Position numbers and translations under genes: made by a program. Below are positions 9,286 to 51,625 of a stretch of 64,000 nucleotides of DNA, piece after piece. Location of the stretch: NCBI GenBank assembly GCA_051313645.2, contig JBNRSN020000009.1, positions 44,888,001 through 44,952,000 of the forward strand, written 5' to 3'. The DNA comes from Centroscyllium fabricii. Its lineage: Eukaryota. Numbering within the stretch: the first letter of the stretch is position 1; the number at the start of each line of letters is the position of its first letter. The notes below the pieces were generated by a model that was not told the origin of the DNA, searched no databases, and saw nothing but the letters and a program-made list of their open reading frames with translations.

Positions 9286-10719
9286 AGGCTATACCACTGT
9301 AATATGGCAAAAGTAAGCCTCTGCAAACACTATTTCGGACTGGGGTTATTCGGTTCAGGGCGCACCTTAACAGATAATGGCTTGGGTACTACTGTGGAAT
9401 GGGAGAATTTAGCAAAGTAACTTTGAAAGAAAACCTATTTCAAAGAAATTACAAGTGAACATCTAGCTACCTAGCGGCACTGTGGCATAATGGTTAGCAC
9501 TGTTGCCTCACAGAGCCAGGGGTCCGGGTTCAAATCCGGCCTCGGGTGACTATCTGTGTGGAGTTTGCACATTCTCCCCATGTCTGCATGGGTTTCCTCC
9601 GGGTGCTCCGGTTTCCTCCCACAGTCCAAAGATGTGCGGGCTAGGTTGATTGGCCATGATAAATTGACCCTTAAGCCCTCTTTTCACTGAGGCTACGAAT
9701 ATCCCGAATCGTCCCGAATCTGAAATTTGTCCGGTTCGTAGATAATTCTCAAACGTTTCCTGCAGTTCTTAAATGATTCTTAGTTGATTCTTAGTTGATT
9801 CGTACAGTTCGCGTGAGTTCGTCGGTCCGCCACGAATGTTTTTGCTTGTCAAAAACATTCGTGGGATGGTTCACGAATTTCAAATTCGTCAACGCTTCGT
9901 AAACACTTCGTGAACCTTTCTTATCGTCCGTAACGGCTTCGTAATCGCTTCTTCTGCATTCTGGCCTATTCGTGGGCATTCGTGATTCCCTCAAATTCGT
10001 GAACCCACGCCGAATACATCACGAAACAGGCACGAATGTCCAGAATCTATTACGAATCAAGTACGAATCGGTCAGGAATCAGGCAGGAGGCGCCAAACTG
10101 ATCAGGTCAGAGTTCACTGAGTGCTACAGTTCACAATTTTTAAAGATGAAGAGATGTCATGGGTGGACTGTCACTTTAAATGTCTAGGCTGCAGTTCATT
10201 ATTGGATCATCACCTATTGTAATGTAACACATCTGATTGGTCTAAATTCTAGATATAAGCCACCTGTTAGCCCTAGGACTTTGTCGGAGTGTTATTTCTA
10301 TGCTGCTGGTTTAAGAGTTCTGTTATTTCCTGTTACCTGTTATTTCTGGAGTTATATTTGTATTCGTTTCCAATCGTTTTGGATTCCTGGTTCCTGCCGT
10401 GTGAGATTACCTGGTACACCGATCAAGGAGTGTCCTTTCCTGAACTGTGATTATTGGAAGTACTGCAGCACCAGACTTTTGGGCCTTGCTTTTTCAACCA
10501 CCAAGGATTTGGGTTTGGACATTTGAACTCTGGCTTACCGGCTATCGGTATCTTGGACTACTGTTTCTTTATTGTGCATTGTGGATTATACTCTGTGTTT
10601 TGATATCTTTATATGCACTGTTGTTATAATTAGGATTAAAGCACCCATTTACTATAGACTGTTTCCGGTGTTCTGCTATTGGGTTCGAAACCGAACCATT
10701 ACAGAACACTCCGACCAAT

Positions 10720-11677
10720 CATGAACCCAGCGGACACACCGGGAAGTCTGGCGCGCATGGAGGAGGTCCTGACACTTCAGGGTCAGGCTTTTGGGGATTT
10801 GTTCTCTAAAATAGAACGGCTAACCTCTGACATGAGGGCGTTCGCTGTAGCAAACCCAGCAGGGACTTCTTCCACACCGGAACCTGTTTCAACAGCTGAA
10901 TCAGTTTCCCTGCCTCTACTTCAGAGCTTCACACCCGAGCCCCGGGTTGGAGTACCAGAGCGTTATGCTGGTGAACCAGAACAGTGCGACCCCTTCATTA
11001 CGAACTGTTCTATTTTGTTTTCCCTACAACCGCGCACCTTTGCCAGCGAGAAGGCAAGAGTAGCATTTATGATCAACCATCTCTCGGGGAGAGCTAGACT
11101 CTGGGGTACTGCCGAGTGGGAGAGAGATACTCCGGCATGCAGTTCTTTCAGAACCTTTTCTGAGGAGTTGAGAAGAGTTTTTGGCAGGGTAGCCTTTGAG
11201 GTGGAGACGGCTGAGGGCCTTATGAGTATGAACCAGGGAAATCAGACGGTTGTGGACTATGCCATTGATTTTCGGATCAAGGCTCGTCGGAGCAATTGGA
11301 ACATGGCTGCCAAATGTGAGGTTTTCCTGCATGGATTGGCGGGATACGTCAAGGATGAATTAGTATCACATAATCTCCCTTCTACTTTGGATGAGATCAT
11401 CAGTCTGGTTACTAGGATCGATCTAAGGATCCAGGCACGACAGCGTGAGAGAGGATTGGGAGAGATGGGTCATCATCCTGGTAAACGGGTTCAGGAGAGA
11501 TTCGTGGCGCCCAGAGATTCGGCCACGTCAGGGATTCCCGAACCCATGCAGTTAGGCCGCACAGGCATTTCGCCATTAGAGCACAGTCGGCGCCGCAGGA
11601 GGGGTTTATGCCTATACTGTGGTCAGGCCGGCCATTTTGTCGTAGGATGCCCGGTAAAAGACCAGACTCACCAGTAG
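10720..11677 (+). CDS. Chromovirus Gag
   Basis: [32 protein letters not shown] zinc knuckle. Confidence 0.93.
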
Positions 11678-14600
11678 AGGGAGTCGTACTGGTGAGCCGA
11701 ACTCCGATTAGACTCTCTTCAAATTCACGGCCTTTGTGCCAGGCTCGACTTCTTCTGCCGTCAGGATCTCGGAAGTTTGCCATATTTATCGACTCGGGGG
11801 CAGATGTTAATATCATTGATAAGGACCTGGTTACACAGTTGGGGATCGACCGGTGTCCACTGCCGCAACCTGTTGCTGCCAACGCTCTTGATGGCCACCT
11901 TCTGGGAACAGTGACTCATCAGACGTCGCCCATTCACTTATTGTTTTCAGGGAATCATCATGAAAGCATTCGGTTCCATATCCTGGATTCGCCTCAGCTT
12001 CCTCTTATTCTGGGACACGCGTGGCTTCGTCGTCACAATCCCCACATTGACTGGAACACGGGAGCCATTTTGGGTTGGAGTCATTCCTGTCACCAAGTCT
12101 GCTTAAAACAAGCCACTGGAGGCCGTCAGTCGGTCACACCTCTTCCCAGTTCTGATCTCTCTGCGGTTCCTACCGAGTATCATGATTTCAGGGAGGTATT
12201 TAGTAAGGCTAGAGCCACTTCGCTACCTCCACATCGCCCATACGATTGTGCTATTGATTTATTACCAGGCTCCTCTCCACCCAGGGGGCGCCTGTATTCA
12301 CTATCGGCACCTGAGAGGAGGGCCATGGAGGTCTATATCGAGGACTCAATATCTGCTGGGATCATCCGTTCTTCCTCTTCTCCAGCAGGGGCAGGATTCT
12401 TCTTCGTTGGCAAGAAGGACGGTTCGCTCCGGCCTTGTATCGATTATAGAGGACTTAATGATATCACTATCAAGAATCGGTATCCTCTGCCTCTTATCTC
12501 GTCAGCATTTGAATTAATTCAGGGAGCTACCATCTTTTCTAAATTGGATCTGCGCAACGCGTACCATCTGGTCCGGATAAGAGAGGGCGATGAGTGGAAA
12601 ACCGCTTTCAACACTCCGTCTGGCCATTACGAATATCTAGTTATGCCGTTCGGGTTAACCAACGCCCCGGCGGTATTTCAAGCCCTGGTCAACGACGTTC
12701 TTCGGGACATGCTGAATATTTTTGTTTTTGTGTACATGGACGATATTCTGATATTTTCAAAGACTCAGGAGGAACATGTGCATCACGTACAGACGGTTTT
12801 GCAAAGGCTTCTAGAAAACTCTTTATTTGTAAAAGCCGAGAAATGTGAGTTTCATGTGACCACCGTTTCATTCCTGGGCTATATCATCGCGCAGGGGAGC
12901 GTGCGAATGGACCCGGAGAAGGTGACAGCCGTTACGTCTTGGCCTAGTCCGGAGAATCGCAAGCAATTACAACGGTTCTTGGGTTTCGCTAACTTTTACC
13001 GAAGATTTATTCGGGGCTATAGCACGGTAGCGGCACCATTATCGGCGCTTACATCTTCTAAGGTGCCATTCAGATGGTCTATCGCTGCTGAGGAGGCGTT
13101 TAAGGAACTCAGGTCCCGCTTTACTTCGGCTCCCATTCTGCAGGTGCCTGACCCGGATCAACAATTTGTAGTAGAGGTGGATGCATCGGATGTGGGAGTT
13201 GGAGCCATCTTATCGCAGAAGTCAGTTTCGGACCAGAAGATCCATCCATGTGCCTTCTTCTCCAAGCGTCTTTCACCAGCAGAAATGAATTATGATATCG
13301 GGGACAGAGAATTGCTGGCGGTCAAGATGGCCTTAGAGGAGTGGCGCCACTGGCTGGAGGGGACCAAGCTGCCATTTCTTGTGTGGACGGATCACAAAAA
13401 TTTGGAGTATATACGTACGGCCAAAAGGCTAAATTCGCGTCAGGCTAGGTGGTCTCTTTTTTTTACGCGATTCCACTTCACCCTCTCCTACAGGCCTGGC
13501 TCCCGCAACATCAAACCCGATGCTCTATCGCGCCTATTTACGAGAGAGGAGGGTTCCGCCCCAGGGCCAGACCTCATTTTGCCAGCCTCCTGCCGTATTG
13601 CTGCGGTTACATGGGAGATCGAGGAGAGGGTAAGAGCAGCTGCGGGGGAGCAGGGCGGGCCCAGCGGTTGTCCTCCCGACCGTTTGTTTGTGCCTAAGAA
13701 CATTCGATCGGATGTCCTTCAGTGGGCTCATGCGTCCAAGCTGTCCTGCCATCCTGGGGCACTCAGGACCAAGGAGGTGATTTTGCGAAGGTTCTGGTGG
13801 GACACGCTAGAGGAGGATACTCGGAGTTTCGTCAATGCCTGTCCGATTTGCAACCAGCACAAGTCTTCTCGGCGGGCACCTGCTGGCCTGCTTCAACCAT
13901 TGCCTATACCCCATCGGCCTTGGTCTCACATAGCCCTGGATTTTGTCACAGGACTACCCTCATCCAAGGGACTGACCACGGTGCTAACGGTGGTGGACAG
14001 GTTTAGCAAGATGGCACATTTTATACCCTTGGCTAAGCTGCCCTCTGCTAAAGAAACTGCAGAGCTCATGTTGCAGCACGTGTTTCGGCTTCATGGGCTT
14101 CCGGTGGATGTGGTGTCTGATCGAGGTCCCCAATTTACTTCGATATTTTGGAGGGAGTTCTGCAGTCTCATCGGGGCCAAGGTCAGTCTGTCGTCGGGAT
14201 TCCATCCCCAGTCTAATGGACAATCGGAGAGGATGAATCAGGAGATGGAGAAGGCACTTCGGTGCATGATCTCCAAAAATCCCTCTTCCTGGTCCACATT
14301 ACTATTGTGGGTGGAGTATGCGCACAACACGCTGACTAGTTCCGCTACAGGACTTTCGCCCTTTCAGTGCGCATATGGGTTCCAGCCTCCATTGTTTCCG
14401 GACCTAGAGAAAGAGGTATCTTGTCCGTCCGTCCAGGACTTCATCCAACGATGCCACAGGACATGGGAACAAGCGCGGATGTCGCTCCTTCGCTCGGCGG
14501 ATCGATACTCGGCTTCGGCCAACCGTCGTCGTTCTACTGCTCCGGAGTATCGGGTCGGGCAGAAGGTTTGGCTCTCCACAAAGGATCTGCCTCTCCAAGT

Positions 14601-15150
14601 GGAGTCCAAAAAACTCGCTCCCAGATTTATCGGACCATTCGTGGTTGAAAGGATCATTAACCCCGCTGCGGTACGACTCAAGCTCCCCAAGTCCATGAGG
14701 GTTCATCCCACTTTCCACGTATCACGTATAAAGCCTGCTCAGGAGAGTGCCTTAGTACCCGTTTCCGCACCCCCTCCACCTCCTCGTATGCTCGACGGTG
14801 GATTAGTGTACACGGTCCGTCGTTTGCTTGACTCCCGTCGCCGAGGAAAGGGACTTCAGTACCTAGTGGACTGGGAAGGGTATGGTCCTGAGGAGAGGTC
14901 CTGGGTCCCTGCTCGGAATATCATGGATCCCAAACTTATTTCCGACTTTCGCAAACAGCACCCTGGTCAACCGAGAAAGGGGAGGGCGATTCCTAGGAGA
15001 CCTGGACAGGTTTTCGACCCCATTTTGAGTCAGGTGGACCTGGACGATAGGGTGGCATCTGATGACGAGGGCCCTGAAATAATGGGGCAGGATGATTCTG
15101 TTTCACCAGATGAGGAGATGGACATTGACAAGAGACCCGAAAATTGTTAG
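11608..15150 (+). CDS. Chromovirus Pol (PR-RT-RNaseH-IN-chromodomain), in the -1 frame relative to gag
   Basis: [43 protein letters not shown] chromodomain; ORF uninterrupted. Confidence 0.95.
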
Positions 15151-17274
15151 TTCCTTCTCCCCGCCAACCCGGTTGTAGGCGATTGGGTTTTGGGGACGTC
15201 AGGTGGCGTCCCTTAAGGGGGGGGTTCTGTCATGGGTGGACTGTCACTTTAAATGTCTAGGCTGCAGTTCATTATTGGATCATCACCTATTGTAATGTAA
15301 CACATCTGATTGGTCTAAATTCTAGATATAAGCCACCTGTTAGCCCTAGGACTTTGTCGGAGTGTTATTTCTATGCTGCTGGTTTAAGAGTTCTGTTATT
15401 TCCTGTTACCTGTTATTTCTGGAGTTATATTTGTATTCGTTTCCAATCGTTTTGGATTCCTGGTTCCTGCCGTGTGAGATTACCTGGTACACCGATCAAG
15501 GAGTGTCCTTTCCTGAACTGTGATTATTGGAAGTACTGCAGCACCAGACTTTTGGGCCTTGCTTTTTCAACCACCAAGGATTTGGGTTTGGACATTTGAA
15601 CTCTGGCTTACCGGCTATCGGTATCTTGGACTACTGTTTCTTTATTGTGCATTGTGGATTATACTCTATGTGTTTTGATATCTTTATATGCACTGTTGTT
15701 ATAATTAGGATTAAAGCACCCATTTACTATAGACTGTTTCCGGTGTTCTGCTATTGGGTTCGAAACCGAACCATTACAAGAGAAAAGCAGGACCAGCCAG
15801 CAAGGCCAAGGGACGCGGCAAAGCCACCAAGCGCGCCCAAGAAGTGATAGAGGACAGCCCGAGGGAAGCAGCTGTACCTCAAGACATCCCTCCAGCACAT
15901 GGAGCCGACCCAGATCTTCCCTCGACAGAGGAAGAGCGTCCGCAGGAGGAGGAAGACCAGTCGCACGAGGTCGAGCTGGAGGCCGACGATGCTGCCGACG
16001 GGGAAGCTCCTCCATCCCCGGGGTCACAGGGGTCCAAGCCAAAGAAGGCGAGGCTCCTGTCAAAACTGACTGACGGAGAACAAGAGGAGGTAACTGTTAT
16101 ATTTATATGTGATATTCCTTTATTAATAATCACTATCGTCAATTTGATTTTGTATACAACTATATTAATTTTATTCTAGGTGGCCCTCTTTCTGGAAGCC
16201 CACGACTTCATATATAACAAGAGGCGTGCGGACCACTGCTTCGCTGACCAGAAAAACAGGGCGTGGGAGGACCTGGCCAAGAGGATGGGCAAGCAGGTGA
16301 AGGCCCTGACAACCTTCTTTGACAGTATCAGGACACAGACGGGGAAGATGAGGAGGAGCAAGAGTGGCCAGGGAACCTTGGAGCTGACTGAGAGGCAGCA
16401 GTGGATCTGGAGCCGCTTCCAGTTCCTCGTACCGCACATCGGCCAGGACATGAGGCGGACCGTGCAGAGCCTCAAGCCTGCTACCACACAGCCGGCTACT
16501 GGAGATCCTGAGGACAGGGATCATGACGTGGACCTGCAGGAAGGTAATGTGACCACGCCACCGCAGGACATCACCCCAAGCTCCACCATCACCACCGCCA
16601 GCAGCTCCAGAGGTGGCAGAGGAAAGGGGAGAGGGTCAGCCATGGAGGAAGAGGAGGACATTGCAGGGGAGATGGCCAGCTTGAGGGAGAGGCAGAGAGA
16701 GCTGCTCCAGATCCTGCAAGCACCCCCTGTTCCTGCTGTTCCCTTTCCGGACCGCCTCAAGTTTTGCGAATTTTTGGGGCATGCATTTCAGCGACTGCCC
16801 ACCCCTATGTACATACAGCTGAGGGACAAAATATCGCTGCTCCTATCCGAAGCTGAAAGTGAGGTGGATGAAATGGAGCAGTCCCGCCAGGCAGAATAGC
16901 TAGCACCACCTCCACCACAACCAGCAGCCTCTCGACATAGACCACGCACCTCATCCACCCTGCCCATGCCGCCTCCTCGTCAGTGGCATCAACCCTACCA
17001 ACAGCAAGGCCAGTGGCAGGCACATCAGTCGCAGTGGCCCTCAAAGCCTGTGATTCCTCATGCTTGGCATCCCGCTGAAAGATCCTGGATTGATCAGCAG
17101 GCAGGAACCTCCAGGCACAGTGATTCCCCCACGTACACGACCCTTAATCCACCTGCAGACAGCCAACAGCCTGACATGAGTGCACCACTGGATGACTCTT
17201 TTGTCAGCCTCTCTGAACACGACACTGAACAGGAGGAATTGGAATATCATTAACATATGTTGTTAATTGTAAGT

Positions 17275-17660
17275 TCAAAAAATTTATTGTTACATGTTAG
17301 TTCTAAAAATTTGTTGTAATAATAATAGTTCTAAAAATTTGTTGTTATATGTTAGTTCTAAAAATTTGTTGTTATATGTTAGTTCTAAAAATTTGTTGTT
17401 ATATGTTAGTTCTAAAAATTTGTGGTTATAATAATAGTTCTAAAAATTTGTGGTTATATGTTAGTTATAAAAATGTGTTGTTATATGTTAGTTATAAAAA
17501 TGTGTTATATGTTAGTTCTAAAAATTTGTGGTTATAATAATAGTTCTAAAAATTTGTGGTTATATGTTAGTTATAAAAATTTGTTGTTATATGTTAGTTA
17601 TAAAAATTTGTGGTTATAATAATAGTTCTAAAAATTTGTGGTTATATGTAAGTTCTAATT
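17275..17660. repeat. AT-rich minisatellite (about 27-bp unit) between the Harbinger genes
   Basis: Repeats of ttgttgttatatgttagttctaaaaat and variants. Confidence 0.9.
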
Positions 17661-18054
17661 TTTTTTTACCAATATACCTTGTTTGCTGTTTAAATCCTGG
17701 TTTCCTTTTGTTGCTTAACACGTTATTTATCACAATAAAAATAACTTTCAAATTAAAATTGTCTCAATTTATCCAAAAAGTCACACAACACCAGTTTCAT
17801 AGTCCAACGGTTTTATTTCAAATCACAAGCTTTCGGTGCTTTTGCCCCTTCGACATGTAACACAGAGAGACTGAAGTCAAAGATCACACATGGGGGAGGG
17901 GAGAAATCTGATCTTATACATCTAACCCTTGAGCACACAAAGGCAAATTATCATACTTTAACACCTCAGTCTATTATCCATATTTATCCATTTATCCTCA
18001 ATTTAACCATAATCACAGGAAATGTCAAATCACTGTCATTGTGTATCCTGAAAT

Positions 18055-22208: not shown

Positions 22209-25200
22209 CAGTCACAGGCCCGTGAAAGCACTCTCAGCGCTCTTAAAAATTCCACGCTGGACTCACCGGGTTGCTGCTTCCTGGTGGCTAGGAGATGTCT
22301 GGCGTGGACGATATTGGGTGCCCGGTTGTACTCCGCCTTGAGGATCCTGATAGCATCCAAGTACGATGATGCGTCCACGATCATGGAGTACACCTGAGGG
22401 CCCACCCGGGCGTTGAGGAGCCGTCGTTTGTCCTCTTCGGTCACGACGACCGCTGCGTTCGCTCTCAGGTACGCATCGAAAACACTGTACCAGTGTGTAA
22501 AAGTGTTTGATGCACCTGGTGTTCGGGGGTCCAGTTCAAACGTCGCTGGCTTGAGCATGGCTTCCATCTTCAAAATTTAGTTAATAAAATTGTGACCGAA
22601 ATAACGACCTCGTGGACGAGTAGTTAGAAAGAGAAACAATGCGGCTTTTATTAACTAAATGGTGGGACACGCACCAGCTAGTCGACTGTCCCCAGGTATG
22701 GCCGGGGGATGGGAGACGGCCATTTATATACCCCCTCCTGGGAGGGAGGAGTCGCGGGCGGAGCCAGCATAGGCATGTCCCGGTAATCGTATAACAGGTT
22801 ATGTACAACATGGCATTAGGTACGATTACATAGATACAAACAGGGTGATTATATACAATAAGAAACAGTGGTTTATCACATTCACCCCTTCTTTAAAACA
22901 AAAGTCCGGCGGGGTCAATGCAAAAGTTATTTTATTTATTTATTTAATCATAAATTAAGTCGCTCCGGTGGCCTGGTAATCCTTGTCGAGCGTCGCACCG
23001 CTGGTGGTGTCCGCGGTCGTGGAGTGGCCGGCCGAGTCGGTTGTAGCGATGGTGCTGATGCAGGTTGGCGAGCGGTGATCGTCGGTTGGTTTCTGGGTGG
23101 TGGTGCCCTTATACCGACAGTAGGAGGCGCGCTCTCTCCCTCGTCATCTGACTCTAGGGGGCGTGCACTGTGGAGCCATGCTGGAGGCCATGCCGTGCTG
23201 CTCGCAGGTGCCGGGTGGACGTACTGGGGTACAGGGTCCTCGTGCCGGGGAGCGTACCTTGGCGCCGGTGGCTGGGGTGGCGTGGCTGGCTGCGATGGCC
23301 CGGATGGGGTGGCAGGCCATCTTGGGTGCGCGGGCTGCTGGGCGGGGCTGGGTTTGGGGATCCCTGCTGGTGCCAGGTCCTTGATGGACACTGTGTCCTC
23401 CCTCCCGTCGGGGAACGCCACGTAGGCGTACTGGGGATTGGCATGCAGGAGGTGGACCCGTTCGACCAGGGGATCTGCCTTGTGGCCCCTCACATGCTTC
23501 CGCAGTAGGACCGGTCCCGGGGATAGCAGCCACGATGGTAGCGAGGTCCCGGAAGCCGACTTCCTGGGGAAGGCAAAAAGTCGTTCGTGAGGGGTGGCAT
23601 TAGTGGCCGTACACAGGAGGGACCGGATAGAGTGGAGCGCTTCAGGGAGGACGTCCTGCCATCGGGAGACTGGGAGGCTTTTAGACCGTAGGGCTAACAG
23701 GGTGGCCTTCCAGAGAGTGGCGTTCTCCCTCTCTACCTGCCCGTTCCCCCGGGGGTTGTAGCTGGTAGTTCTACTAGTCGCGATGCCTTTGGCTAGCAGA
23801 AACTGACGCAGCTCGTCACTCATAAAGGACGCTCCCCGGTCACTATGAATATAGCTGGGATAGCTGAACAGGGAGAAGATGCTGTGGAGGGCTTTGATAA
23901 CAGTGGCTGAGGTCATGTCCGGGCAGGGGATGGCAAAGGGGAAGCGGGAGTACTCATCGATCAAATTAAGGAAGTACACGTTCTTGTTGGAGGAGGGAAG
24001 GGGCCCTTTGAAATCGACGCTGAGTCGTTCAAAGGGGCGAGTGGCCTTAATCAAGTGCGCCCGGTCTGGCTGGTAGAAGTGCGGCTTGCACTCCGCGCAG
24101 ACCTGGCAGTTGCTGGTCAGCGTCTTGACCTCCTCGATGGAGTAGGGGAGGTTGCGGGACTTCACGAAGTGAACCAACCTGGTGACCCCCGGGTGGCAGA
24201 GGTCATTGTGAAGGGTTTGGAGGCGGTCTGTCTGTGCGCTGGCACATGTACCGTGGGATAGGGCATCTGGGGGTTCGTTAAATTTCCCAGGCCGGTACAA
24301 GATATCATAGTTGAACGCGGAGAGTTCAATTCTCCACCTTAATATCTTGTCGTTCTTTATTGTACCCCGCTTTTTGTTGTTGAACATAAAAGCGACTGAT
24401 CGTTGGTCAGTCAGCAGGGTAAAACGCTTGCCGGCTAGGTAGTGCTTCCAGTGACGCACTGCTTCAACGATGGCCTGGGCCTCCTTCTCGACTGAGGAGT
24501 GGCGGGTCTCGGGGCCCTGGAGGGTACGTGAGAAGAAGGCCACGGGTCTGCCCGCCTGGTTAAGGGTGGCGGCCAGGGCAAAGTCCGATGCATCGCTCTC
24601 TACTTGAAATGGGACAGACTTGTCCACAGCGTGCATCGTGGCTTTTGCGATGTCATTCTTAATGCCACAGAACGCCGTGCGGGCTTCTGCTGACAGGGGA
24701 AAAGAGGTAGATTTAAGCAGTGGGCGAGCTTTGTCCGCGTAATTGGGGACCCACTGGGCATAATAAGCAAAGAAACCCAAGCACCGTTTAAGGGCCTTGG
24801 GGGAGTGGGGGAGGGGAAGCTCCATGAGGGGGCGCATGCGGTCCGGGTCGGGACCGATGACCCCATTCTCCACAACACTGCCGAGGATGGCCAGGCGGGT
24901 GGTACTGAACACGCACTTTTCGGTGTTATAGGTCAAATTTAATGTTTTGGCGGTGTGGAGAAATTTCTGGAGGTTGGCGTCATGGTCCTGCTGATCGTGG
25001 CCGCAGATGGTCACGTTATCGAGGTACGGGAAAGTGGCTCGCAGCCCGTACCGATCGACCATTCGGTCCATCTCCCTTTGGAAGACCGAGACCCCATTCG
25101 TGACGCCAAACGGGACCCTAAGGAAGTGATAGAGGCGACCGTCAGCCTCGAAGGCTGTATAGAGACGGTCCTCCGGGCGGATGGGGAGCTGGTGATAAGC

Positions 25201-27251
25201 GGACTTCAGGTCTATGGTGGAAAACACCCTGAATTGTGCGATCTGGTTCACCTCTTCGGCTATCCGGGGAAGGGGGTATGCGTCTAACTGGGTGAACCGG
25301 TTTATGGTCTGGCTGTAGTCAACGACCATCCGGTTCTTCGCTCCGGTTTTGACCACCACTACCTGCGCCCTCCAGGGGCTATTACTGGCCTCGATAACCC
25401 CCTCCTTCAGGAGGCGCTGCACCTCGGACTTAATAAAGTCCATGTCCCCAGCACTGTAGCGCCTACTCTTGGTGGCGACGGGCTTGCAGTCTGGGGTGAG
25501 GTTGGCAAAGAGCGAGGGAGGGGCGACCTTAAGGGTCGAGAGGCCACAGGTAGCGCGCCGGGGGTGCTGTGCTGAGCGCCGGTTGCTGACCGTGAGCGAG
25601 GGAAGGGGCCCACCGTACGCCATGGTAACACTCTGGAGGTGGCACTGAAAGTCCAGACCCAATAGTAATGGGGCGCAGAGCTGCGGCAGCACGAAAAAGC
25701 TAAAATTATCAAAGTGCACACCCTGTACAGCTAGGGCCACTGCGCAACGCCCGGAGACGTCCGCAGATTCCAATTTAGAAGCCATCGAAATTCTTTGGCT
25801 CGCAGGCATAACCTTAAGGGAGAAGCGCTCTGCTGTCTCAGGATGAATAAAACTCACCGTGCTCCCACTGTCGAAAAGGCACACCACGTCTTGTCCGTTC
25901 ACTTGCACCGGCATCATTGATTTCCCAAGCGATTGGGTCTTGTTCTGGTCAAGAGTTACTGATGCTAAAATTGGGTCAGCCGATTCCTCTTGATCCACAG
26001 AGTAGTCCTCCGGGGCCGGTCCCCAAGATGGCTGCCGCCATGTGGTGTACTGCGGAGGGGGTGGCTGGGTCCAATATGGCGACTGCTGCCACGCGGGGTG
26101 CTGAGTGGGGGATGGTTGAGTCCAATATGGCTGCTCCCATGTTCCGCACGCGGCGCTGCCCGGTTTCGGTTTAGGGGCTGGTGTGGTCGCCTTACAGACT
26201 TTCGCGTAATGTCCTTTTTTACCACATTTTGAACAGGCCGCTTCTCTTGCCGGGCAGCTACGTCTCGGATGCTGAGACTGCCCGCAGAAGTAACATTTAG
26301 CCATCTTTGCGTGAGCGGCTGCTATCATTTCTTCCGCCGGCCGTTGCGCCGGCGTTGTCCAAGATGGCGGGGCTGGGCCCACATAGTTGCCGGAATAAGA
26401 TGAGAGGTTTAGCGAGGCCACATCCAGCGCGTGTCCCAGATCCGTAGTTGCCTGCAGGTCAAGGCCGTTCTGCTCTAACAGCCTCTGTCTTATATAGTAC
26501 GACCTGAGGCCTGTCACATATGCGTCTCTAATGAGACTGTCCGCATGGATCAGGGCCGTTAGCGCTTTGCAGTCACAGGCCCGTGAAAGCACTCTCAGCG
26601 CTCTTAAAAATTCCACGCTGGACTCACCGGGTTGCTGCTTCCTGGTGGCTAGGAGATGTCTGGCGTGGACGATATTGGGTGCCCGGTTGTACTCCGCCTT
26701 GAGGATCCTGATAGCATCCAAGTACGATGATGCGTCCACGATCATGGAGTACACCTGAGGGCCCACCCGGGCGTTGAGGAGCCGTCGTTTGTCCTCTTCG
26801 GTCACGACGACCGCTGCGTTCGCTCTCAGGTACGCATCGAAAACACTGTACCAGTGTGTAAAAGTGTTTGATGCACCTGGTGTTTGGGGGTCCAGTTCAA
26901 ACGTCGCTGGCTTGAGCATGGCTTCCATCTTCAAAATTTAGTTAATAAAATTGTGACCGAAATAACGACCTCGTGGACGAGTAGTTAGAAAGAGAAACAA
27001 TGCGGCTTTTATTAACTAAATGGTGGGACACGCACCAGCTAGTCGACTGTCCCCAGGTATGGCCGGGGGATGGGAGACGGCCATTTATATACCCCCTCCT
27101 GGGAGGGAGGAGTCGCGGGCGGAGCCAGCCTGGGCATGTCCCGGTAATCGTATAACAGGTTATGTACAACATGGCATTAGGTACGATTACATAGATACAA
27201 ACGGGGTGATTATATACAATAAGAAACAGTGGGAAACAGTGGTTTATCACA
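22209..27251 (-). mobile_element. Ty3/Gypsy element A plus a truncated tandem second copy
   Basis: LTRs 26952-27251 and 22591-22880; PPT aaggggtgaa; 22209-22590 repeats the leader and gag start. Confidence 0.95.
22948..26928 (-). CDS. Gag-Pol polyprotein of element A, intact single ORF
   Basis: Two CCHC knuckles, LFDSGS, FPYLDNV, ESDASD, integrase DFKGP/HSDRG/GQVER. Confidence 0.93.
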   Translation of the reverse strand: MEAMLKPATFELDPQTPGASNTFTHWYSVFDAYLRANAAVVVTEEDKRRLLNARVGPQVYSMIVDASSYLDAIRILKAEYNRAPNIVHARHLLATRKQQPGESSVEFLRALRVLSRACDCKALTALIHADSLIRDAYVTGLRSYYIRQRLLEQNGLDLQATTDLGHALDVASLNLSSYSGNYVGPAPPSWTTPAQRPAEEMIAAAHAKMAKCYFCGQSQHPRRSCPAREAACSKCGKKGHYAKVCKATTPAPKPKPGSAACGTWEQPYWTQPSPTQHPAWQQSPYWTQPPPPQYTTWRQPSWGPAPEDYSVDQEESADPILASVTLDQNKTQSLGKSMMPVQVNGQDVVCLFDSGSTVSFIHPETAERFSLKVMPASQRISMASKLESADVSGRCAVALAVQGVHFDNFSFFVLPQLCAPLLLGLDFQCHLQSVTMAYGGPLPSLTVSNRRSAQHPRRATCGLSTLKVAPPSLFANLTPDCKPVATKSRRYSAGDMDFIKSEVQRLLKEGVIEASNSPWRAQVVVVKTGAKNRMVVDYSQTINRFTQLDAYPLPRIAEEVNQIAQFRVFSTIDLKSAYHQLPIRPEDRLYTAFEADGRLYHFLRVPFGVTNGVSVFQREMDRMVDRYGLRATFPYLDNVTICGHDQQDHDANLQKFLHTAKTLNLTYNTEKCVFSTTRLAILGSVVENGVIGPDPDRMRPLMELPLPHSPKALKRCLGFFAYYAQWVPNYADKARPLLKSTSFPLSAEARTAFCGIKNDIAKATMHAVDKSVPFQVESDASDFALAATLNQAGRPVAFFSRTLQGPETRHSSVEKEAQAIVEAVRHWKHYLAGKRFTLLTDQRSVAFMFNNKKRGTIKNDKILRWRIELSAFNYDILYRPGKFNEPPDALSHGTCASAQTDRLQTLHNDLCHPGVTRLVHFVKSRNLPYSIEEVKTLTSNCQVCAECKPHFYQPDRAHLIKATRPFERLSVDFKGPLPSSNKNVYFLNLIDEYSRFPFAIPCPDMTSATVIKALHSIFSLFSYPSYIHSDRGASFMSDELRQFLLAKGIATSRTTSYNPRGNGQVERENATLWKATLLALRSKSLPVSRWQDVLPEALHSIRSLLCTATNATPHERLFAFPRKSASGTSLPSWLLSPGPVLLRKHVRGHKADPLVERVHLLHANPQYAYVAFPDGREDTVSIKDLAPAGIPKPSPAQQPAHPRWPATPSGPSQPATPPQPPAPRYAPRHEDPVPQYVHPAPASSTAWPPAWLHSARPLESDDEGESAPPTVGIRAPPPRNQPTITARQPASAPSLQPTRPATPRPRTPPAVRRSTRITRPPERLNL

Positions 27252-42770: not shown

Positions 42771-43019
42771 ACTGGAATTTTTAATTATTTTTGTATTTGT
42801 ACATTCACTTTTAATGATTTGTGTACGCAGACCCCTAAATTCTATTGCTCCTCCTCCACAGCTCCTAATCTCTTCCCATTAACAAAATATTGCAATGTCA
42901 CTTTCTCAGATTAAGAGTGGATGGCCTGTATATTAATTATTGGATTGCTGAATACTGCTCTATTTACATTGTAAGAAGTCACACAACACCAGGTTATAGT
43001 CCAACAGTTTTATTTGAAA

Positions 43020-43056
43020 TCACAAGCTTTCGGAGCGCTGCTCCTTCATCAGGTGA
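43020..43056 (-). ncRNA. Minimal type I hammerhead ribozyme motif
   Basis: tcac CTGATGA aggagc agc gctcc GAAA gctt gtga. Confidence 0.7.
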
Positions 43057-43582
43057 AGTGGAGAGCTGCATATAGGCACAGCATATATGGTCAGAGAACA
43101 ATGCTAGATGATTACAGGTAATTCCTCTAACCGCTCTTTATCACACCTCGGCAGAGAGACAATCACAGCAATCAAAGGTGTGAATGGTGTCCAAACAGGT
43201 CAGCCAGGAGAAAAATTCCATCAAAGAACAATGAGGTGGGGTCACAAGGGGCCAAACGCTGCACATGCTGGGGTCTGTATGAAAAACAAAAAACAAACAA
43301 AAAACAATAAAAAATGAAATTGATGTTTTTTTAATTTCATTTTTTATTGCTTTTTGTTTGTACAGACCCCAGCATGTGCAGCATTTGCCCCCCTGTGACC
43401 CCACCTCATTGTTCTTTGATGGAATGTTTTCCTGGCTGACCTGTTTGGACACCATTCACACCTTTGATTGCTGTGATTGTCTCTCTGCTGAGGTGTGATA
43501 AAGAGCGGTTAGAGGAATTACCTGTAATCATCTAGCATTGTTCTCTGACCATATATGCTGTGCCTATATGCATCTCTCCACT

Positions 43583-43619
43583 TCACCTGACGAAGGAGCA
43601 GCGCTCCGAAAGCTTGTGA
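43583..43619 (+). ncRNA. Minimal type I hammerhead ribozyme motif
   Basis: tcac CTGACGA aggagc agc gctcc GAAA gctt gtga. Confidence 0.72.
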
Positions 43620-44131
43620 TTTCTAATAAAACTGTTGGACAATAACCTGGTGTTGTGTGACTTCTTACATTTGTCTACCCCAGTCCAACACTGGCACCGC
43701 CACATCCTGGCTATTTACATTGACTCAGGTTTACATGCTTATCATAAACACAAATGACAGCCTCTTTAATTGTGACCATGGGGCATTATCCTTCCGTGTC
43801 TTCCTCATGCTCTCCATGGCATTTGACATGGTCTACCTTGCCAACCTCCTCTATTGCCTTTTCTCTTTTATCCAGCTCTGTGGGACTAATGTTCTTTTGG
43901 TTCCAGTCCTACCTGTCCTAATACAACCAGCACATTTCCAGCAATAGTTTCTCATTGGACCCCACACAGTCACTGGCAGCATTCCCTACAGATCTATCCT
44001 TGGTCCCTTCCTCTTCTACAGAATTCCTTTGGTGACATGATTTACAGTCACAGAATCAGCTTCCATATCTATACTGACGACACCTGGCTCTACCTCTTCA
44101 CCACTGCCTTGACCACTTCTGTATTGTACTC

Positions 44132-48235: not shown

Positions 48236-50962
48236 TCTAAAAAAACATGCAATTTTTTTTCCGATATTTATAAATTATTTTTCCTTCCTGACAGGTCCCG
48301 ACATCACAAACTTTTTGTATCTGAAAGATGGACTGTTTCACTTTATGCTCAACTGTTGGGAAGCATGCAGGAGTCCCTCAAGGATAAATGGCTGGTCTCT
48401 GCTCAGGAACTCCCCCCGCCCTCTCTCCCACCCCTGCCATGGTGGCATAGCTGAGATTGGGACTCGATCAATGAGGAATTGTGGCTACCAAATGACATCT
48501 ACCCATCTGCCCTGCAGCATGTTGGAATTCCAGTGTGCTTTACCACTGCGCTGCCCATATTTATTAGTGTAATCTTTCATTCGCACCCATCCAAATTGGG
48601 TTTTGAATAAGTTATTTTTGTGTGGAATGGTCAGCACATGATTATCGGGAATGGTGGGCATTTCATGCTATATCCAGATTAACCCAGTAACAAACGGGTA
48701 AATGGTTAACCCTGGGGCATGCGATACCATATTCACTACATGCATAAGATTTATGTTTCTGTTCATAACAGGCAGGGTGAGCTTATGGAAGCTGCCTTTT
48801 GTGGTGAGCATGAGTTATGAGTTGGGAAAGGGTGTGTATTGTTACACTGCCATTGTGGACTTTGTGCATTTAGAGACAGACGGGATGAGGAATTTGGGTT
48901 TATGTAGCATCCTCTGGATGGCTCATTGACACCTTTCCTCCCTTGGACTCCGAACTCTCATCTGTGACCCTCACTGCATAGCAGTGGCCTTATCCTGGAC
49001 ACCAACCTATGAATGCCCACGATATATTGATAGTAACCCTCTGACACGGTTCCCCAGGATATCTGGACCCACTTGAAGAGACCACACGGCAGGTAAGTGT
49101 TCTAAGTCGGACTTTACTCGAAAAGACAAGAAGAGGCTAAGTAGCCACTGCTTACATGGTACATGAAAACACAAAGCAAAATAACAGAGAGACAATGCTC
49201 AAACTAAACATAGCACATAAGCCAAACATACTAACAAGCAGTAGAGTGTCCATGAGTTCAAGACTAAGCACTGAGTCCTAGAGAGACAGGGTTTAAGCAC
49301 TCTAGACAACGAGTCCCCAAATGAGGTTCACTCTTTTGGTGAAAAATTAAACTTATTGTCTGTAAAATAAATAAAACTTTAAATAAAACTTTACAACTTA
49401 AATCAAAATAATGTTTTCCGGGTTGTTGATGCACTCCAGTCCCCACGGCGCCCACCGGTCGCGAAAAGCCTCAAGCGCCGAATGAGGTTCAGGTGGTGAC
49501 AGGTTTCTTTGGGAGGTGATGTACTCTGCTGCCACCTGTTTTTGGGGATGGCTAATAATACCCTCAGAGTTGCATAAAACACGGAGGGTGTGCAGTGTGT
49601 CCTCAAGCCATACAGATTTATTTTGCAGGGACTAAGTGCATGCTCAAAGTGATGCCCAGCAAATCTAGCAAATTGATGTAGCTTTGCACCTCCCAAACCA
49701 TGCATACCTAGAATCCGGGTTCGAGAAAATAAAAGTCACCCAACATTATTATGGAATATAATATAAGTGTATTAAGCGTTCACGTGAACTTTCCCAATTG
49801 GAAGTTCCACCGTATTATATTTGATTTTCTAATTTTCTAGGGTATCGCACCATTAATAAACGTACAAAAATCAGTGCACTCCTATGATAACACAGCTCCT
49901 TGTTGTAAGCTGGATACCCTGAAATATATCAATGAAGTAATGGCCCATATTTCCCGATCGCAGGCCTCCCGCAGGCAGAGGCCTGTGATCTGGAAAACTC
50001 TACGAACTTACCTGAGGGCTCCCGGGATGCACACACTTCCGATCGTGGGCCTCTCCAGACACCAAGTGTGCAGAGCCCACGTATCGCAGAGGTGCAGATA
50101 GTTCGCAGCGTCCCTGGGATCACGTGGGCTATGTTGATTCAATCACAGAAGGAAATCTCCCTTCATACATGTTGTATCTATGCTTCAATACATTCAATCA
50201 AGCATGTAGCTACATCGAATTAAATCACAGTTCAGTCAGACAGGTTCAAACTCAGTGCTCACTTTTAATCTCCAAGATGGTTTCTGCCTCATGGCTTCTG
50301 CTGATAGTTCCCACAATGCCATGCACATTACATACCGTAATACCTGGTGTAAACTCGCCTCTTATATTACCATATTACCTGGTGTAAATGCGCAATCAAT
50401 ACACGACACCCCCCTTTTCCTTGGAAAGAAACTTGCAGTTTACAAACAGTTTCTTACAATAACACTGTATAACTTGTTTGGTTTATAACCCTTTACAAAC
50501 TTGTGTCTTATAACAATAACACTGTACAACTTGTTTGGTTTATGAACCTTTCACAAACTTGTGTCTTATCACACAACTATATAATTCCATATTTATACTA
50601 TACATTTAACATCCCCCCATGTAGTTCTCGCACAGTTTATGTTGTGACATAATCAGACAATCTTAGGGGTTTTCTTTTAACCCTTTGAGGTCTGGCTGTA
50701 TTGGGTATGTCTGACATGTTGTTGTCCGTGGGTATTGCCTGTGTCACAGTGGTATGTGTCTCAGAGTCTACTATACAGTCCTCAGTCTCTTGTGCTACCT
50801 CCTGCTCATGGAGTGCCTCTTTTGGTCCATCGGTTCTGTATTTCTTCATGAATGTAGTGTTTCTTGAGTAGCATGCTCCATCTGTAGATTCTACTACTAC
50901 TTGACTCCCTGTTTTATTCAAAACTTTGTGAGGTGTGGCATTAAAAGGAGTGGTGAACCTGT

Positions 50963-51625
50963 CCTTTTGAAGATTTGAGATAATAGATTTGTAAAGGTTT
51001 GTTCTGGGTTGATCTTCATCATTTGTAGGAGATCTCTTGCCGTAAATACCTCATTTTGTAGCTGTTGTCCCAGTATCTGTTTATGGCTTTGATATTCATC
51101 CTCATCAAGCTTTCTGGAATGTTCTGCCTTCTTCAACTCCACTTGAAGAGCTAAATGAGCAGTGGTGGGTTGGTTTAGTATTTCACACAATTTATGATTT
51201 TCACAACGAGCTTCATCAAGCTGTTTCCTCAGCACCTTGATCTCAGTATGAAGTTGTACATTTTCTTCCACCAATTCATGGCAATGTTCCTGCTGTTTCT
51301 GAAGTCTCTCCATAGCATTCTTCTCTCATGCGATCAATGTTTCAGACTTCATCTGATGCATTTTATCTAACTTCCTTCTGACCTCTTCGATAGCCTTGTG
51401 CGACCGCTCTTCCTCCTGAATCCGGACCTTAGCCAATTCCAGCTCTTGCTGCATCTCTGCCTGAAGCTGTTCTTCTATTTGTTTGCGATATACAAGTAGT
51501 TTTGTTTCCCAAAAGTCCTCTTGCACATTTGCTGGATGAAGTGCTGCATATTCTTCATCAACCATTTGAAGTTTATCAACAATAGATTCTTTGTACTGTG
51601 GAATGCAGCTGGTCTGAGCTTCTAC
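50963..51625 (-). pseudogene. OFD1: Spliced, exon-permuted OFD1 cDNA fragment
   Basis: EAQTS..KLQMVDEEYA..YRKQIEEQLQAEM..KSETLIA*EKNAMERLQKQQE..QLDEARCEN..QQLQNE|VFTARDLLQMMKINP. Confidence 0.88.

Follow-up and report, generated by a model that had tools for sequence, protein, structure and literature searches.

Retroviral transduction yields defective genomes in which host coding sequence is fused to gag and which spread with the aid of a helper. Captured host sequence in LTR elements is exemplified by maize Bs1 and HERV-K/FAM8A1, as cited in the accessible part of Tan et al. 2016, which describes template-switch capture, chimera formation and re-mobilization for linear mRNAs; its main text contains neither the stem "circ" nor the word "shark" (PMC5131818). 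For circular RNAs, the closest case is a set of 33 high-confidence mouse pseudogenes derived from circRFWD2, which carry the back-splice junction, have LTR-rich flanks and are associated with MMERVK10C-int, and whose mechanism was left open (PMC4897178); the LTR suggestion is restated in the accessible portion of a review (PMC5408686). Here, we analyze a 64,000-nt stretch of the genome of the shark Centroscyllium fabricii (the window), in which a Gypsy element carries permuted, intronless sequence of the OFD1 gene. Reading the circle from its genomic copies alone, we consider it probable (roughly 0.84) that a circular RNA was captured by template switching of the reverse transcriptase (RT). 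The literature that we searched, which takes in few subscription papers, held no prior report of this shark family, of circOFD1 or of a full-lap capture; within it, the new elements are a complete single lap with mapped switch points, a non-mammalian Gypsy carrier with hundreds of copies and a frame-preserving merger with a second gene.

The carrier lies on the minus strand and is a Ty3/Gypsy LTR retrotransposon by its LTR features and PR-RT-RH-IN order. Its 240-bp LTRs (5' LTR at 63120-62883, opening with TG; 3' LTR at 50408-50170, ending in TACAACA) are 92.9% identical, have TG...CA termini and are bordered by a TGTAT target duplication at 63125-63121 and 50169-50165. Directly after the 5' LTR stands a primer-binding-site-like motif, TGGCGACAAGGA (62881-62870), which may correspond to a tRNA-Ser 3' end. 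Gag and a partial protease follow at 62816-61858, 90–93% identical to other copies, with about 200 nt of protease deleted and the region broken in the window copy; in the sister copy L066, Pfam identifies Retrotrans_gag (weakly) and Asp_protease_2. The end of the protease region (51667-51626) is joined to OFD1 sequence by a recurrent RT deletion, in frame in 59/60 copies, and the far side of the insert is occupied by the integrase C-terminal tail (stop near 50637), the 3' UTR and a polypurine tract (50959-50409). This tail is contiguous with the rve/H2C2 integrase in full-pol copies, one of which, L096, contains RVT_1, RT_RNaseH, Integrase_H2C2 and rve in order, with protease upstream. No env was seen in the element. 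The family is non-autonomous, being without intact RT, RNase H or integrase yet multicopy, and full-pol partners share its LTRs and ends; as in LTR retrocopies, intronless host sequence stands in place of internal ORFs between LTRs of one family.

An earlier note on this DNA had placed the insert inside a Gypsy element, which holds, with the correction that between gag and the insert lie a LINE fragment and, nested in it, two LTR elements. These later insertions (61857-51668) lie outside the capture: the LINE 3' fragment is split by an LTR element at 61832-52367 (target-site duplication AATCC), within which lies another at 59555-54691. Their LTRs are 97.8% and 98.4% identical, respectively, and the inner one has a long single gag-pol frame. 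Elsewhere in the window, repeat pairs at 10155-15527 and 22209-26869 are 100% identical over 300 nt and are probably the LTRs of very recent insertions, the second pair surrounding pol sequence related to the nested elements. The window also contains a tandem array with a 27–28-nt period (17244-17685) and a MITE-like 243-nt inverted repeat, 98% complementary with 214-nt spacing (42970-43669).

The minus strand from 51625 to 50960 encodes pieces of OFD1 that are intronless and permuted in order. Pfam left the OFD1 part of this insert unnamed; its best matches are shark OFD1 proteins, top among 55 (83% identity, E 7e-78). A LisH_2 family search of the genome located the parent OFD1 at G000:C335:27.81-27.72 Mb on the minus strand, where we examined 120 kb and mapped 15 coding exons, with AG acceptors at internal exons and GT donors at exons 2–15; we take our exon numbering to equal the human convention. 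Mapped on these exons, 51625-51288 is exon 6 (from nt 63), exon 7 and exon 8 in spliced form (91–99% to the parent exons), carrying an 18-nt deletion and a stop that are private or found in a minority of copies; 51266-51050 is exon 13 (from nt 105) followed by exon 14 as far as the splice donor; and 51049-50960 is exon 4 with the first 22 nt of exon 5, with a 1-nt deletion in the window copy and an end at a GGACA(A) homology with integrase. The protein matches and the exon mapping bear out the OFD1 identity, lack of introns and permuted order that the earlier note had described. The internal jump that it reported is present too, but lands at parent residue 443 instead of near human residue 436, with 21 nt of a second gene, PMFBP1 (51287-51267, HCHELVE), in between. 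Its view of the insert as nearly one lap of a circle fails for the window copy, which keeps about 643 of the 1233 nt of the exon 4–14 circle, and stands for other copies, which are near-complete. The same family search returned a second LisH_2 match over the cut-off (L022, G000:C1548:61786-61863), which by tblastn is not OFD1 and is probably another LisH centrosomal gene. Within the parent locus, several intronic repeats on both strands match residues 759–796 of a database OFD1 isoform (P0001), a segment that looks like a repeat-derived exon or an annotation artefact.

Exon 14 ends at window position 51050 and exon 4 begins at 51049, each in phase 0. In the parent gene, exon 14 ends in TAAATGAG|gtaaag and exon 4 starts at tcacag|GTATTTAC, again both in phase 0; because these splice sites coincide with 51050/51049, the junction is an exact join of a donor to an upstream acceptor, as the reading of an exon 14-to-exon 4 back-splice had predicted. 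A tandem duplication of the parent, proposed beforehand as the competing source of such an order, is absent: each exon is single-copy in the 120 kb scanned, with no second exon 4 downstream of exon 14, and exons 9–11 occur as genomic exons in one place only. Linear contigs of two other organisms contain, in normal order, exons 3-4-5, 70 nt, exons 6–8, 268 nt and exons 11-14-15, so that in these relatives 70 nt separate the end from the start of the window insert; since they are collinear, the permuted order is specific to the element. No inverted repeat pair connects parent introns 3 and 14 today, such pairs being present in 35 of 91 intron pairs, and none of the 25 contig pieces examined, out of 524, bridges the back-splice junction (four runs, from organisms A, B, C and G, searched with copy L052; contigs drop rare forms). 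The four belong to a set of 24 runs containing parent exon 16, none of them registered as RNA, so that they say nothing for or against expression; runs X4 and X6 gave no coverage of element parts, which likewise carries no weight.

The junction sequence AG|GT provides 4 nt of homology across the back-splice, which leaves room for an RT switch at this very point. RT might accordingly have jumped between linear OFD1 mRNAs, the match to splice sites being coincidental, in keeping with the many homology-driven switches in the family and with AG|GT being common to exon junctions. However, of the 9776 backward joins in the OFD1 coding sequence that have a microhomology of 4 nt or more, only 10 coincide with a donor-acceptor pair, and the 4-nt abutment of the insert's ends, described below, would be a second coincidence; we regard such a jump as extremely improbable.

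To find copies of ancestral type, we used a sequence pattern for the exon 8/9 join together with exons 9–11 as queries, and scored 40 of 315 candidates. Among these 40, at least nine intronless copies retain exons 9–10, and one more is truncated in exon 9. Four of the nine cross the back-splice junction, end at exon 6 nt 56–58 and continue into the integrase tail; in two of these four, the insert opens at exon 6 nt 63, next to the RNase H start, and the full lap is seen at both ends. The exon 4–14 circle comprises 1233 nt, or 411 codons, and is stop-free. Because the insert starts at exon 6 nt 63 and ends at nt 58, the capture in these rare copies amounts to 1229 of 1233 nt, 99.7% of one lap, with its ends 4 nt apart, and none of the nine copies with exons 9–10 has exon repetition beyond one lap. 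At the exit junction (exon 6 nt 63/RNase H), a GAT(A)GCAGA homology is present and the frame is kept; at the entry junction (exon 6 nt 58/tail), homology is limited to 1 nt and the frame is lost. All copies mapped hold exons 4–14 only, 2–13-nt BLAST overruns aside, lack poly(A) and directly adjoin element sequence. They thereby combine the sequence features of circRNA-derived pseudogenes: a non-colinear junction at parent splice sites, only exons of the circle and no poly(A).

The splice-exact junction, the 1229 of 1233 nt and the ends 4 nt apart support the template switch onto a co-packaged circRNA that the earlier note had put forward, and they bear on two further explanations. A linear RNA with repeated exons, produced by trans-splicing, exon repetition or a lost tandem duplication of exons 4–14, would give an identical splice-exact junction, and circle and repeat look alike in contig-level RNA data. 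Against such a template stand the unduplicated 120 kb of the parent and the collinear contigs of relatives, and a linear repeat gives no reason for ends that lie 4 nt apart of 1233 (about 1% by chance, by our estimate) and never overlap, so we judge it highly unlikely. Alternatively, another RT, such as that of a LINE, could have made a circRNA-derived pseudogene whose transcript the Gypsy element later captured. A nicked circle copied end to end would give one lap, and the 1-nt entry homology fits a free RNA end; yet all nine copies with exons 9–10 adjoin gag, PR, RT or LTR sequence of the same family, no free-standing copy was found among them, and element sequence abuts the cargo without flank, poly(A) or linker. 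This two-step route, which would still require a circRNA, has in our estimation very little chance of being correct.

For direct capture of the circle, the following course of events would account for the copies. A Ty3/Gypsy element with a single gag-PR-RT-RH-IN frame would have packaged, along with its own RNA, a back-spliced circle of OFD1 exons 4–14. During minus-strand synthesis, RT would leave the integrase tail, enter the circle at exon 6 nt 58 and copy it, presumably backwards, via exon 4 and over the junction into exon 14, until it came back to exon 6 nt 63. At this point the template would end, the circle having been nicked or the entry site cut by RNase H, and RT would return to element RNA at the GAT(A)GCAGA homology at the RNase H start. 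An RT that cuts the template behind itself, or a circle nicked once, would be expected to give exactly one lap. A separate capture would have brought eight spliced PMFBP1 exons into the family; recombination at homologies of 6–10 nt would then have swapped OFD1 from the exon 8 end to exon 11 nt 40 for PMFBP1, a switch to a full-pol partner would have yielded the exon 5/integrase end, and serial deletions would have led to the window type, the order of all these steps being suggested by nesting. Derivatives would be mobilized in trans by full-pol copies, and the lineages that spread would be those in which a single frame stayed open from gag until about 200 nt or less before the normal stop. 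The back-splice junction, the one-lap extent and the junction sequences are themselves preserved in the copies. Parts of pol are replaced rather than interrupted, with switch-point homologies of 10 nt at RT/OFD1 and GGACAA at OFD1/IN; homology at the switch points is 5–10 nt at most junctions and 1 nt at the original 3' junction.

The 21 nt of PMFBP1 in the window are the remnant of a stretch of about 700 nt that lies, in longer copies, between OFD1 exon 8 and exon 11 (for example, L052:2552-3253). A word-based search for this second cargo was negative in all 267 candidates and ESM Atlas returned generic coiled-coil matches only; phmmer matched the stretch to a protein named pmfbp1 (E 4e-43). 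A cryptic OFD1 exon was considered as its source and rejected, there being no match within the OFD1 locus. The parent PMFBP1 exons are on C667, and the cargo is spliced and collinear. In the chimera, PMFBP1 stands in place of OFD1 exons 9–10 (from the exon 8 end to exon 11 nt 40), with OFD1/PMFBP1 joins at GCAGGA and GAGAAAGTGA homologies; splicing of the exon 8 end to PMFBP1 was likewise rejected, since the join is the GCAGGA homology inside a PMFBP1 exon. At least 8–9 copies (L107-L114, L086) have a PMFBP1-only form made up of RT, eight exons and the tail, whose insert of 1158 nt (386 codons) is in phase 0 at both ends. At the 5' junction of this form, element GAG|GTGAGG meets the start of an exon; the 3' junction falls within the final 8 nt of an exon. 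The PMFBP1-only form and the chimera have 17 differences from the parent in common and the chimera has four more, which fits descent of the chimera from the PMFBP1-only form, although the order is unpolarised. In the samples taken here, the chimeric form outnumbers each single-cargo form. The copies contain 57 unexplained gaps, none of which suggests a third cargo by its position or an open frame. In one copy, L101, about 47 nt of PMFBP1 lie in frame between RT and the integrase end, and weak exon-like PMFBP1 matches of 38–45% identity at G000:C1155:137.70-137.75 Mb mark a possible paralogue.

PMFBP1 may have entered the family by splicing from an element donor, by a second whole-circle capture or by plain double switching; scans of the two parent loci (160 kb for PMFBP1, 120 kb for OFD1) revealed no copy of the element. 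Since one end of this cargo coincides with an exon start and the other lies about 5 nt or less from an exon end, it can tentatively be read as a second captured whole circle, cut open at the back-splice of that circle. In mammalian sperm, PMFBP1 connects the head to the tail and both centrioles contain OFD1, according to the available part of one source (PMC8471410), and these sperm roles may indicate that the element was active in male germ cells. The fuller scenario, in which both cargos were whole circles, assembly of particles took place at the centriole of the spermatid and the in-frame cargo routed them for paternal transmission, is in our opinion quite doubtful.

To characterize the junctions of the family as a whole, we surveyed 112 copies, with 13 loci dropped (duplicates, parent exons or flank) and joins with gaps above 25 nt or overlaps above 30 nt ignored. 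Eighteen types of junction are recurrent. Thirteen of them lie upstream of the integrase tail, and each of these preserves the frame in nearly all copies (46/48 for the back-splice); of the five into the tail, two are in frame and three out of frame. Single-copy joins are in frame in 16/26 cases, and the in-frame share of homology pairs is about 0.2–0.6, mostly 0.3–0.5, with 32/91 for exon-pair back-splices. Two of the 13 use an in-frame homology of 18–20 nt and are not independent; without those two, 11/11 at 0.5 corresponds to about 5e-4. Two of the out-of-frame tail joins amplified well, reaching 24 and 8 copies, with a stop within about 60 nt of the normal stop, and frame therefore matters only upstream of the tail. 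The ancestral out-of-frame form stops somewhat before these two amplified forms; its out-of-frame 3' end was rejected as the cause of its rarity, given the amplification of the other two.

Across 77 cargo copies, the ratio of nonsynonymous to synonymous non-CpG variants in gag and protease was 23:17 for shared versus 464:153 for private variants (p 0.024); in the cargo it was 23:7 versus 511:158 (p 1.0). From these small counts, Gag and protease look mildly constrained and the cargo amino acids appear to drift neutrally, and the few shared variants leave scope for weak selection on the cargo. A kept frame together with a neutral cargo suggests that what was selected is an open frame rather than the cargo protein. 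The open frame is more likely than not explained by a need for near-full translation in RNA stability and packaging, for which yeast Ty1 offers a loose parallel: in the accessible part of PMC3945221, translating and packaged Ty1 RNA form one pool without cis-preference, and some translation may aid stability. A useful Gag-PR-OFD1-PMFBP1 fusion, for instance one that steers particles to the centriole or sperm neck, could also account for the frame, as both cargos are coiled-coil parts of centriole or sperm-neck proteins (PMC8471410, in the part available), L066 has a 484-aa open stretch (gag-PR-OFD1-PMFBP1-OFD1) and the chimera is more numerous than each single-cargo form in our samples. We find this unlikely in view of the neutral ratio for shared cargo variants and of the successful lineages, whose cargo deletions differ and overlap and leave as little as 21 nt of PMFBP1; the element protease may, moreover, cleave the cargo off.

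The 19-mer spanning the back-splice junction has 236 exact matches in the genome versus 1 for the reversed control, and 23 of 41 sampled junction copies match it exactly. Together, these figures suggest a family of roughly 400 copies, and probably more, because sampling was by best score, not random, and favors well-preserved copies. In the first search, 39/39 copies carried the junction, having been chosen by likeness to the window. The other LTR copies with the same insert that the earlier note proposed to look for are thus found as a family of several hundred, in which the window copy is a deleted member. The median LTR-LTR mismatch is 4.9% (25 copies). Element and parent OFD1 differ by eight fixed amino-acid and 17 synonymous differences, with Q and R in the element where the parent has L513 and S109 on the two sides of the back-splice; at four of the eight, the element agrees with most of eight outgroups, one is element-derived and three are ambiguous, a pattern that argues for an old capture. 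Two family-typical deletions are found in run X1 (organism A, 48% of sampled parent-exon words in common), each in a single contig at 85% likeness; this hints that the family arose before a species split. In run X23 (organism G), protease and tail are covered very deeply and the cargo only as exon-sized, low-depth pieces; depth is not a measure of copy number, and the pattern hints weakly at a Gypsy element without cargo in organism G.

The route from circRNA to DNA was left open for the mouse pseudogenes (PMC4897178), and the shark family preserves such an event together with its partner element and its entry and exit points. The implied rule is that an RNase H-bearing RT should copy a co-packaged circle a single time. 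The family would also be indirect evidence that an ancestral shark had a specific circRNA in its germ line, and permuted exons could be searched for, with no need of RNA, in the non-autonomous LTR families of any genome. The 13/13 in-frame junctions and the neutral cargo suggest that LTR element RNAs filter captures for open frames, a filter that would bias gene capture towards ready-made protein fusions.

The circular RNA-derived pseudogenes to which the earlier note referred were mammalian; the mouse case is indeed known, but the precedent was understated, as circRFWD2 pseudogenes already hold ERV internal sequence (PMC4897178). Those pseudogenes and the shark family are alike in being multicopy, in their non-colinear exon junction, in lacking poly(A) and in their LTR/ERV association. 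For circRFWD2, the mechanism was called mysterious and the main text gives no switch points (PMC4897178), although the mouse structure may be closer to ours than that text says. The shark family differs in its Gypsy carrier, in switch points mapped on full-pol partners, in covering 99.7% of a lap and in its hundreds of copies, and its cargo continues the gag-pol frame and has undergone recombination with a second gene. With the retrocopies of Tan et al., so far as the accessible part of that paper describes them, it has in common a partial mRNA that takes the place of ORFs inside an LTR pair, brief sequence similarity where templates were switched, chimeras of several genes and further rounds as non-autonomous elements, whereas its template is permuted across a back-splice junction and its frame is conserved over many junctions (PMC5131818). 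Like retroviral transduction, Bs1 and HERV-K/FAM8A1, the last two as cited in the same part of that paper (PMC5131818), the family pairs a defective genome with host sequence fused to gag and spread by a helper, and its PMFBP1 5' junction (GAG|GTGAGG) resembles an element donor joined to a host exon acceptor. Unlike retroviral transduction, it shows no env, no sign of selection on the cargo protein and no element copy in the parts of the parent loci searched.
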